Positions 17,954 to 27,776 of a DNA stretch of 64,000 nt are shown piece by piece; position 1 is the first letter of the stretch; every line of letters starts with the position of its first letter. The notes beneath the pieces are model-generated. The model was given only the letters and a program-made list of their open reading frames with translations. It ran no database searches and had not been told where the DNA came from. This stretch comes from a virus: the IMG/VR virus record IMGVR_UViG_3300006916_000041, positions 1-64,000 of that record, one strand, 5' to 3'. The position numbers were made by a program, and so were the translations under genes.

Positions 17954-18388
17954 ATGAGGGAAAACGCAATATACACAGTAACTCCGCCTGATATGATGTT
18001 GCCAGAAAGCGGGCCTATTATAACAGTAATAAGTAGTAGTGCTGACTTTGTACAAAAAATTGAATTATTGTATGAAAATATTTTTAAAAATGTCAGTGTT
18101 ACACTGTATCATCCAAATGGCAAGGTAACAGAGTCTAATAGTGCTTGGGTAATAAGTATGGTTAGATTTAGCGACACAGTTTATGTAGATTTGGATGATG
18201 TTAACGAACTTAGCCTTGCACTAATTTTATTGAGTAGCAAAACAACTATTTTTATAAATCAGCGTAACAAAAAGAAAGGACTAGTAAAACTGTTAAACAG
18301 CATGACAATACAAAATAAAAAATTTACTATTGTAGACAGCATCGACGAATACAGCGACATGGTACTAGAGAGTGTACTTGATGCGTAG
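17954..18388 (+). CDS. Hypothetical protein
   Basis: ORF track. Confidence 0.6.
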   Translation: MRENAIYTVTPPDMMLPESGPIITVISSSADFVQKIELLYENIFKNVSVTLYHPNGKVTESNSAWVISMVRFSDTVYVDLDDVNELSLALILLSSKTTIFINQRNKKKGLVKLLNSMTIQNKKFTIVDSIDEYSDMVLESVLDA

Positions 18389-18908
18389 ATTTCAAAAAGT
18401 TGCACCTAAGCAACCTATAAACGAAAATATACAGCACAATACACTGAGAGTAGTCGGAGAAGATCAACAATTTGGAATTGTTAGTTTAGACCAGGCATTG
18501 GAATTAGCTAAACAACACCAAACAGACCTAGTAGTAATAAGTGAAAAAAGCGATCCGCCGGTAGCTAAACTATTAGATGCTAATAAATATTTCTACGAAC
18601 AAAAAAGACGTGAAAAAGAAGCAGCTAAAAAACAGCGTGAAAATCAAATTGTAATCAAAGAAGTTCAGTTTAGATTGGGAATTGGTGATCATGATTTTGA
18701 CATAAAACTCAAAAACATTGAAAAGTTTTTAAGCAAAGGCAACAAAGTAAAATGTGTAATACGATATAAAGGCAGAGAAAATGCCAATAAACAACAAGGG
18801 TTTGCGATAATTGATCGTATTACTGAAAGTCTAGAAAATACTGACTGGGAAAGCAAGCCAAATCTAAATGGAAACCGATTAATCGGTGTACTAACGAGGA
18901 AAGAATGA
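18381..18908 (+). CDS. infC: Translation initiation factor IF-3
   Basis: INENI..LRVV, DLV.I....PPVAKL.D..KY.YEQK, KEVQF...I..HD...K, KVKC.I..KGRE. Confidence 0.93.
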   Translation: MRRFQKVAPKQPINENIQHNTLRVVGEDQQFGIVSLDQALELAKQHQTDLVVISEKSDPPVAKLLDANKYFYEQKRREKEAAKKQRENQIVIKEVQFRLGIGDHDFDIKLKNIEKFLSKGNKVKCVIRYKGRENANKQQGFAIIDRITESLENTDWESKPNLNGNRLIGVLTRKE

Positions 18909-19132
18909 GCAGAGATAGAACTGAAAAACAAGGACTTTATGTAGAAGTTCGTAATAATGATGTAGGTCGTGCTTTACGCAAACTTAAAAAATTAGTAAAT
19001 CAAGAAGGCGTTATAAAAGATCTAAGATCTAAAGAATATTACGAAAAACCAAGTGCTAAGAAAAAACGTGAGAAAGCACAAGCTAGAAAACGTTGGTTAA
19101 AAACTGTTGAAAAAAATAAAGAAAATTGGTAA
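18905..19132 (+). CDS. rpsU: 30S ribosomal protein bS21
   Basis: V.VRNNDV.RALRKLKK....EG, YYEKPS.KK.R. Confidence 0.92.
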   Translation: MSRDRTEKQGLYVEVRNNDVGRALRKLKKLVNQEGVIKDLRSKEYYEKPSAKKKREKAQARKRWLKTVEKNKENW

Positions 19133-19138
19133 AAAAGG

Positions 19139-19167
19139 TTGACATTTGTGTCAACAAATACTATATT
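19139..19167 (+). promoter_or_regulatory. Sigma70 promoter driving the non-coding RNA region
   Basis: TTGACA(TTTGTGTCAA), 17-nt spacer, TATATT. Confidence 0.75.
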
Positions 19168-19198
19168 AAAAGCATAACAAAGACGACGGTCTGAGTTA

Positions 19199-19377
19199 GA
19201 TAGTGCAAGGAAACGCTGCTTACAGAGGCAGTAACTTGGCTAGTAGCTGTAGTGGCACTGCATGAGCCTGGAGACAGGAAGATGCAGATTTTGGAAGTAA
19301 CTATCCAATGCTAGGCTTCGCTGGATATGGACAGGATCTGTGCTGGCGCTTGTGGGTAATCCTTAGTCCCACCTATC
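19199..19377 (+). ncRNA. Structured RNA, manA-motif-like candidate
   Basis: No ORF; closing GATAG/CTATC; hairpins CTGC/GCAG, CCTG/CAGG, TTGGA/TCCAA, ACAG/CTGT, GTGGG/CCCAC; possible AGGAT/ATCCT pseudoknot; family call from recalled layout only. Confidence 0.5.
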
Positions 19378-19384
19378 AAATATT

Positions 19385-19484
19385 ATAGTGTTTTAATATA
19401 CACACCAGAGTAGATGCACCTGCTTTCCTGTGCATAGGACAAGAGTTGAAAAACCGCAAGTGAGTGTGTATATTAAAGCGTTAT
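19385..19484 (+). ncRNA. Unknown structured RNA closed by a 21-bp stem
   Basis: 19385-19405 pairs with 19464-19484; the only 3 non-Watson-Crick pairs are all G-U. Confidence 0.65.
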
Positions 19485-19575
19485 GTATTGAACGCTTTGA
19501 TCCGAACTGTAACAAGAAAGGAGACTCACTAGACAAGAATTATAGTGGGACGACTAGAAAAACAGAGAGAAGGGT

Positions 19576-19616
19576 TGCGCCGTAATACGCACGTTAGGGA
19601 CCACGGTTAGTCCCTA
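19576..19616 (+). ncRNA. Two hairpins with complementary loops (kissing-loop candidate)
   Basis: TGCG-CCGTAATA-CGCA and TAGGGAC-CACGGTTA-GTCCCTA; CCGT/ACGG. Confidence 0.45.
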
Positions 19617-19681
19617 GATAAATAAACTTGTAGATGCCAATAGGGTCTACGTATATAAATCTTGCTTAAAAGGAGATTGAC

Positions 19682-19879
19682 ATGCAAGCACAATATTTTA
19701 ATAACCTTGTGGATCAAATCCACACACAAACAAAAACTTTCCTAAACACAATTGATCCAAGTGAACAGTACACAAAGCCTGTTAAAGCTATGGCTGAAGC
19801 AAATACTGAATTTGCTAAAACTTGGGCAAACGCAGCAGAATCAATGACAACTGCATATACAGCGGCATTGAAAGCGTAA
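19682..19879 (+). CDS. Small amphipathic Ala-rich protein (phasin-like candidate)
   Basis: AAGGAG SD; late promoter at 19619; helical pattern. Confidence 0.6.
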   Translation: MQAQYFNNLVDQIHTQTKTFLNTIDPSEQYTKPVKAMAEANTEFAKTWANAAESMTTAYTAALKA

Positions 19880-19890
19880 GGAGAGAAGCT

Positions 19891-20322
19891 ATGAACAGAT
19901 TAACTACATTAGACATTAACAAACTCACCCCTTATGCAGTAGGCTTTGATAGAGTATTTGACGATATGTTCAAATATGTACAACACAATGCCAATAGCAC
20001 AGGTTATCCACCTTACAACATTGTTCGTGATGGTGACAAGTTTCAAATTGAAATTGCACTAGCAGGTATTGCCAAAGAAGATTTGGAAATCACTGTAGCA
20101 GAAGGTGTACTTACAATTGAACACAATCCAGAAGGCGAAGTTGAACAACCAGGCTGGACATGGATCCACAAAGGCATCAGTCAGCGTAAGTTCAAACGTA
20201 ACTTTACACTAGCAGATGATGTTGTGGTTAATGGTTCACGTATGGAAAATGGTATGTTGTTTATCGAACTAGAACGTATTATTCCAGAAGAGAAAAAACC
20301 ACGTACTATTGAAATAAAATAA
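19891..20322 (+). CDS. Small heat shock protein Hsp20 (IbpA-like)
   Basis: VGFDR.F, YPPYNI, IEIALAG, HKGIS.R.F.R.F.LA, ENGML.I.L....PEEKKPR.I.I. Confidence 0.95.
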   Translation: MNRLTTLDINKLTPYAVGFDRVFDDMFKYVQHNANSTGYPPYNIVRDGDKFQIEIALAGIAKEDLEITVAEGVLTIEHNPEGEVEQPGWTWIHKGISQRKFKRNFTLADDVVVNGSRMENGMLFIELERIIPEEKKPRTIEIK

Positions 20323-27516: not shown

Positions 27517-27776
27517 TTAGCGTTGAAGCAACGTGGACACATACTGGACTGCGGGGCGGTACCGCACTCGTCCACCATAAGCACATTTAGATAAGTGTGT
27601 TTTTTATGGGCGAGAAATTAGGATCGACAGGTGTGAAAGTGAAGTGGAGTTAACCGGATGACTGCGTTATTAGTCAAAAATCACAATTGCAAATGACAAT
27701 CGTGCGCCAGAAATGGCACTAGCTGCCTAATTTAGGTAAGTAGGGGTTGGCAACGAACCTGGCAACAGAATCGTTG
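27517..27776 (+). ncRNA. ssrA: Permuted two-piece tmRNA, alphaproteobacterial type (outer ends approximate)
   Basis: T-arm + CTCGTCCACCA (ends 27577), intervening hairpin, then GGGCGAG (27608) with G3-U pair, GGATCGAC, tag 27689-27730 ANDNRAPEMALAA*. Confidence 0.95.

Follow-up and report, generated by a model that had tools for sequence, protein, structure and literature searches.

A portable pseudoknotted RNA module in split-tmRNA spacers, tRNA arrays and an hsp20 leader of marine and estuarine T4-like phages

Introduction

Of the RNAs described so far, the nearest to the one reported here is found in permuted (two-piece) tmRNA genes, namely their intervening sequence (Keiler, Shapiro and Williams 2000; RF01849, RF04321; PMC11915505). 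The enzymes of tRNA processing cut the transcripts of such genes, and mature tmRNA no longer contains the intervening sequence (PMC11915505). Another RNA, manA (RF01745), has already been published as lying upstream of ibpA/hsp20-type chaperone genes (Weinberg 2010, PMC2864571), and manA RNAs are reported to form decamers and a 60-mer cage in vitro (bioRxiv 10.64898/2026.07.01.735769). In phage T4, the tRNA gene cluster also encodes two small stable RNAs, species 1 and 2 (rnaC, rnaD), which are matured from precursors shared with the tRNAs. Intervening sequences of 23S rRNA are long-stemmed inserts of ~100 nt, which are excised by RNase III without religation and show a patchy distribution among close relatives. 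The C4 RNA of phages P1 and P7 and the CI RNA of phage P4 are cut by RNase P from an operon leader and then act on the downstream message.

Here we analyzed a window, i.e. a whole stretch of DNA of 64 kb, which is the first part of the 172-kb IMG/VR virus record IMGVR_UViG_3300006916_000041, estimated to be 48% complete. A hairpin located between a manA-like RNA and the leader of an hsp20 operon turned out to be a real, conserved, ~100-nt structured RNA that is absent from Rfam. Phage split tmRNA genes carry a homologue of this module as their intervening sequence, a relationship that the initial annotation of this DNA had missed. The window copy is nevertheless not a tmRNA intervening sequence itself: it is flanked by manA and an mRNA leader, whereas 35 homologous loci do lie between the CCA end and the coding 5' end of a tmRNA gene. 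Moreover, tmRNA intervening sequences were published as discarded and variable, while here one and the same pseudoknotted head recurs, also in tRNA arrays and in the mRNA leader.

Results and Discussion

Setting of the element in the window

The element sits inside a 549-nt gap without genes, and the features on both its sides are listed in Table 1. The manA match is full-length, yet it scores under the gathering score of 55.2; it ends (19382) three bases short of the start of the 21-bp helix of the element (19385). The genes downstream also include clpS (Pfam). A promoter-like site within the element (19446-19474, 10 of 12 matches) was rejected as a chance match, as its hexamers are lost in the relatives, and is probably a by-product of the AT-rich stalk.

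Table 1. Positions of the element, its structural parts and the neighbouring features in the window
Feature	Position	Strand	Remarks
infC	18372-18908		upstream of the element
rpsU	18905-19132		upstream of the element
Strong sigma-70-type promoter of the manA-element-hsp20 transcription unit	19139-19167	+	11/12 consensus positions, 17-nt spacer
manA-like RNA (Rfam RF01745)	19179-19382	+	directly upstream of the element; Rfam, 41.3 bits, E 1.5e-8
Stalk P1, 5' strand	19385-19407	+	partner 19461-19484; 20/23 pairs with two-sided changes (47 sequences)
Segment found or missing as a block among close relatives	19387-19500	+	flanks contiguous in L082, L116 and L096
Junction strand J1/2	19408-19413	+	no variation at any locus of the viral scan that left J1/2 free
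Stem P2 with pyrimidine-rich loop	19416-19433	+	19416-19419 with 19430-19433; 100% of cells pair
Pseudoknot	19426-19439	+	loop 19426-19428 with 19437-19439; 99% of cells pair
Stem P3 (3 bp) with GAAA loop	19445-19454	+	2/3 pairs with two-sided changes; GNRA-like loops in relatives
Stalk P1, 3' strand	19461-19484	+	contains bulged A19463
Alternative 3' hairpin	19475-19498	+	19475-19482 with 19491-19498; competes with the outer 8-10 bp of the stalk
Conserved structured leader	19501-19681	+	72-89% identity in relatives; found with or without the element
65-aa ORF	19682-19879	+	downstream of the leader, precedes hsp20
hsp20	19891-20322	+	Pfam HSP20, E 2.8e-18
Permuted tmRNA gene, alphaproteobacterial-type	27477-27821		matches to tmRNA by ARAGORN and Rfam
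Intervening sequence of the window's own permuted tmRNA gene	27578-27607	+	stalk type of the element, short loop replaces the head

Secondary structure and covariation

To collect homologues, we scanned IMG/VR with three patterns and metagenome contigs with one, and each pattern was anchored on a different part of the element. The first eleven sequences were used to build a covariance model, which was applied to the scan matches, and 47 distinct sequences were obtained in all. Covariation among homologues had been proposed in the initial annotation as a check of the RNA, and it was clearly observed: 25 of the 33 pairs have changes on both sides, i.e. compensatory changes. In the alignment 95% of the cells pair, in comparison to 24-53% for slid 3' partners used as a control (20-60% over all such controls), and none of 500 shuffles reached the observed pairing values. 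Chance pairing as the origin of the structure is thus excluded. The folding of the 104-nt stretch has a z-score of -4.8 relative to shuffles.

The 21-bp helix originally described (19385-19405 with 19464-19484) is complete, and its three non-Watson-Crick pairs are all G-U. We found that the stalk extends inward beyond the bulged A19463 by the pairs C19406-G19462 and A19407-U19461, the former of which becomes G-C in 23 of the 47 homologues. Across the alignment, the length of the stalk is held at 21-23 bp while its sequence turns over completely. The head behaves in the opposite manner, as each of its segments is kept invariant in the scans that left this segment free.

The inner ATGCAC/GTGCAT hairpin noted at the outset is present, and its third pair covaries (G-C 35, A-U 12); the other changes in P2 are C-G to U-G and A-U to G-U. 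The pairing proposed between TCCT of the loop and the adjacent AGGA holds for three of its four pairs (TCC/GGA), whereas the fourth fails in 11 of 25 sequences. A 6-bp hairpin combined with a 4-bp pseudoknot was rejected as sterically impossible, with zero linker nucleotides, and the pairs that make this fold impossible either show no variation or are the ones failing in 11 of 25 sequences. A 4-bp stem with a 3-bp pseudoknot is sterically feasible, and we prefer this H-type pseudoknot since it includes every covarying pair and none of the violated ones. Two of the three pseudoknot pairs pass from C-G through U-G to U-A in the 47 sequences. An alternative fold with two hairpins matches the pair counts equally well as the pseudoknot. 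The model is thus a 23-bp stalk that carries a three-way junction head with a 4-bp hairpin, a 3-bp pseudoknot and a small GNRA-type hairpin.

The selected molecule is the + strand RNA, in line with the early reading of the G-U deviations, as indicated by 71 G-U cells in comparison to 10 A-C cells in the alignment and by the scores of the covariance model, which reach 72-123 bits on the + strand and do not exceed 39 bits on the - strand.

The earlier statement that the RNA could not be assigned to a known family was borne out: in Rfam 15 nothing overlaps 19385-19498 at E up to 10, eleven homologous loci gave no match for the element at E up to 5, and the tmRNA loci match only tmRNA itself. With a stalk, hairpins and a pseudoknot that all covary, the element represents a new, well-supported structured RNA family for phages.

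Genomic contexts and copy number

The genomic context was counted in 69 IMG/VR contigs, one of them cut by the contig end. In 35 of them the module serves as intervening sequence in a permuted tmRNA gene of a phage, where it spans the distance from the CCA end, which closes the acceptor piece, to the first G at the 5' end of the coding piece. In these copies the outer stalk consists of the tmRNA acceptor stem and the CCA tail, and the coding piece begins right after the 3' strand of the stalk. In 13 contigs the module is placed 0-6 nt upstream of a tRNA gene, sometimes with another tRNA just before it. In the tRNA-array version, the promoter and the stalk are separated by a leader of ~48 nt that contains a small hairpin, and in two loci (L154, L161) extra sequence is inserted between the promoter and this leader. 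Nine contigs contain a promoter-manA-element unit downstream of the gp23 capsid gene, closed by a strong intrinsic terminator. The remaining version, found in 11 contigs, is that of the window, with the element between manA and the hsp20 leader. Two variants of the hsp20-leader version (L153, L194) are missing manA and have the promoter directly before the stalk; the promoter immediately precedes the stalk also in L168, as it does in L153. The carriers are marine and estuarine T4-like phages with an alphaproteobacterial-type split tmRNA.

Six large records, all with tmRNA and 24-85% complete, have exactly one copy each, and a second copy is absent from the 172-kb record of the window. We rejected a miniature inverted-repeat transposable element, considering the single copy in 172 kb, the single copy in each of five other records, and inconsistent borders.

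In records whose copy is part of a tRNA array, the spacer of the tmRNA gene has retained the stalk and bears an unrelated head: the spacers of L263 (G005) and L265 (G002) share the stalk and carry unrelated heads of ~55 nt, for which no Rfam match was found. In the window's own tmRNA spacer (27578-27607) the stalk is kept and the head is absent, with a short loop only. Over the inner 12 bp of its stalk, the window element can be aligned with the window's tmRNA spacer and with those of L216, L262 and L264. The tmRNA spacer thus looks like a slot for different small RNAs.

Taken together, the element is a portable, self-folding RNA module of ~100 nt, and its distribution demonstrates that it is interchangeable among tmRNA spacers, tRNA spacers and the hsp20 leader. 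A conserved RNA can reside in a split-tmRNA spacer that was supposed to be discarded, and tmRNA genes, tRNA arrays and an mRNA leader exchange this RNA with each other. Outside of these phages we obtained no matches, either when the whole intergenic region was compared by blastn with 50,697 records of cultured phages or in two core-pattern scans covering 185,579 genomes of prokaryotic species, and the element is absent from the whole records of the cyanophages P-SSM2, P-SSM4 and Syn9.

Relation to manA and to other known RNAs

Outside tmRNA genes manA is the usual neighbour of the element, being directly upstream of it at three different loci. The distance is 5-9 nt at two of them (the hsp20 leader and downstream of gp23); in one tRNA array manA is likewise directly upstream, and in others it lies within ~350 nt, one or two tRNAs away. 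Although manA is a neighbour and a co-transcribed partner, the two modules are distinct: manA is missing next to the element in L153 and in the tmRNA copies, and the element is missing in P-SSM2 and P-SSM4, which have manA. The placement of manA in tRNA arrays and in terminator-bounded units suggests that in these phages it is a free-standing RNA rather than a cis-regulator, which agrees with its reported self-assembly. At one locus (L184:389-561, - strand) manA within a tRNA array ends 6 nt before tRNA-Arg, and at L144-type loci (L144, approximately 2243-2650) it is part of a promoter-to-terminator unit after gp23.

The T4 rnaC RNA has a tRNA-like T arm, which the element lacks, and the T4 tRNA region contained no match to the element model with filters off, the best score being 12 bits. 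The intervening sequences of 23S rRNA are similar in being long-stemmed ~100-nt inserts in stable-RNA genes, which could be regarded as a functional analogy only, and they differ in residing in another host RNA. They are not known to have a conserved pseudoknotted head or to be mobile among types of RNA genes. The C4 and CI RNAs might likewise be compared with the leader-borne element solely as functional analogues, and the Rfam C4 model gave no match to it. Y RNA / YrlA gave no Rfam match, and no TROVE domain was found in the record of the window (48% complete).

Transcription

Transcription, another proposed check, was confirmed in four metatranscriptome runs, which were aligned to the region as assembled contigs, a form from which cleavage, RNA ends and relative amounts are not readable. 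The rpsU stretch 18800-19123 had zero cover in all four runs. Cover by RNA contigs starts at approximately 19161-19184, just past the promoter, and continues through manA, the element, the leader and hsp20; the contigs bridging manA into the element come from two studies. The element is thus co-transcribed with manA from the promoter at 19139-19167. Over manA the contigs from RNA libraries reach a very high depth, but the depths of manA (hundreds to thousands) and of the element (0-25) are per-contig figures that mix related phages, and their comparison was set aside. In one high-depth RNA contig an Illumina adapter is joined directly ahead of 19184, which suggests that many fragments start at this position, near the expected transcription start and the 5' end of manA.

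Gain and loss among close relatives, and the 3' hairpin

In a tree based on the 65-aa ORF and hsp20, all leader copies fall within one well-supported clade of 11, of which seven members have the element and four do not. It takes four changes to account for this distribution on the tree, with one gain and three losses as the simplest combination. In one relative (L093) the element is present and manA absent. The borders differ between the absences, so independent deletions of a hairpin-forming segment fit better than site-specific insertion; a 6-bp direct repeat is found at the borders in one pair only. Given close relatives without the element, the module is dispensable at the hsp20-leader site.

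The alternative hairpin reported at the 3' side of the element (19475-19482 with 19491-19498) is a perfect 8-bp helix, and in the relatives its inner four pairs are swapped for other complementary pairs. It was found only in hsp20-leader copies, and is absent in the tRNA, tmRNA and terminator contexts. The outer stalk pairs with which it competes are likewise kept by compensation in the hsp20-leader copies, and the predicted energies of the stalk state and the 3' hairpin state are a few kcal/mol apart. The hairpin starts ~12 bp below the junction, within two positions of the place where the coding piece begins in the tmRNA copies. It is not followed by a U-tract and does not occlude the ribosome-binding site.

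A small RNA probably released from stable-RNA precursors

In our opinion the data are best explained, with a probability of roughly 55%, by a small RNA that is made in stable-RNA precursors, cut out by processing, and acts in trans. We infer that the module is transcribed within such precursors and then excised. In the tmRNA and tRNA contexts, RNase P would free the 3' side and tRNA 3'-end processing would free the 5' side. As the window copy has no tRNA-like neighbour and no adjoining RNase P site, an RNase III-type cut is proposed for it, and its near-perfect stalk would be the likely cut site of such a double-strand-specific nuclease. An uninterrupted duplex of ~20 bp or more, a feature of RNase III substrates, is indeed present (21 bp plus 2 bp, with G-U pairs as the only exceptions). 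No RNase III gene was found in the 172-kb record (48% complete), so the enzyme would have to be provided by the host. The suggestion of the initial annotation that the element is an RNase III-processed sRNA thus keeps its main part, a processed small RNA, whereas for most members the flanking cuts would be those of tRNA-processing enzymes. After the cut, the 3' hairpin could re-fold the freed 3' strand of the stalk and thereby cap the 5' end newly created on the hsp20 mRNA.

The released RNA, composed of the head and the stalk, probably acts in trans. A trans-acting product is favoured over a mere spacer by the presence of one copy per record at changing places, by the invariant head on a drifting stalk, and by the occupation of the tmRNA slot by other heads. 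The head loop shows complementarity of only 4-6 nt to Shine-Dalgarno-like stretches of the leader or manA, which we judged uninformative; convincing complementarity to the downstream leader was not found, and neither was a target or a partner protein.

A broader version of this reading is possible, although tentative: the stalk could serve as a general launch platform for small effector RNAs, with the head described here being one trans effector, present in one copy per genome and parked where processing frees it. Such an effector might be a partner, cargo or assembly regulator of manA, or a decoy for host functions directed at tRNA or tmRNA. If this is true, it is the recurrent adjacency of the two RNAs, together with the closed multimeric cages formed by manA in vitro, that would make the head a candidate for such a role towards manA.

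Alternatively, the module may work only in cis, as a spacer that provides a folding clamp or processing punctuation, or as a near-neutral selfish insert; its neighbours would then mature independently and the module would be degraded once cut. This could explain why it is always located between two other RNA units, why close relatives do without it, and why the tmRNA stalk works with other heads or with none, and the patchy distribution would resemble that of rRNA intervening sequences. We find this explanation rather doubtful, since a plain hairpin would suffice for such a role, yet the head sequence is invariant while the stalk drifts by compensation. A spacer would also have many RNA junctions per record at its disposal, yet there is a single copy, and the same head has been retained in four unrelated contexts.

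A switch, which the initial annotation also considered, would imply that the head senses a ligand, temperature or a protein and shifts the balance between the stalk and the 3' hairpin, thus changing the folding or stability of the leader and regulating the 65-aa ORF and hsp20. Compensatory changes that keep both competing helices in the hsp20-leader copies, the small predicted energy difference between the two states and the aptamer-like appearance of the conserved junction would all be consistent with it. However, most members are found in tmRNA genes, before tRNAs or before a strong terminator, where there is no gene to control and no 3' hairpin, and ligand sensing fits poorly with copies in tmRNA genes and tRNA arrays. 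The hairpin in the leader lacks a U-tract and leaves the ribosome-binding site free, and the 12-bp inner stalk is too stable to switch. Riboswitches are recognised by a position upstream of genes of one pathway together with an expression platform, and for this element that combination was not found, the competing hairpin being confined to one context. We therefore regard a switch as unlikely.

Still less probable is self-cleavage, with the element acting as a new ribozyme to detach from its neighbours, an idea raised by the initial annotation and unsupported here. A compact pseudoknotted junction with invariant unpaired nucleotides and the constant position at RNA-RNA boundaries would suit a ribozyme; on the other hand, the models of known families (hammerhead, twister, twister-sister, pistol, hatchet and HDV-like) gave no match at E up to 10, and tRNA-processing enzymes already take care of the two boundaries in most contexts.

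A DNA-level element (a palindromic recombination site or a miniature transposable element) in place of a functional RNA, to which the presence or absence as a block with near-precise borders and the 6-bp direct repeat in one pair of relatives could point, is largely refuted by the strand asymmetry (G-U tolerated, A-C not) and by the covariation of the head and pseudoknot, and it is also at odds with the single copy, the borders varying between losses, and the transcription of the module.

The leader of the hsp20 operon

The conserved leader that follows the element contains several hairpins, one of which has compensatory changes in L196. Its first eight bases (19501-19508) recur a few dozen nucleotides after manA in cyanophage P-SSM4. 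At the other end of the leader, a short hairpin at 19655-19684 could take up into its stem part of the Shine-Dalgarno region of the 65-aa ORF, the reading frame ahead of hsp20; judging from the sequence, this hairpin may be a candidate RNA thermometer for the heat-shock operon.
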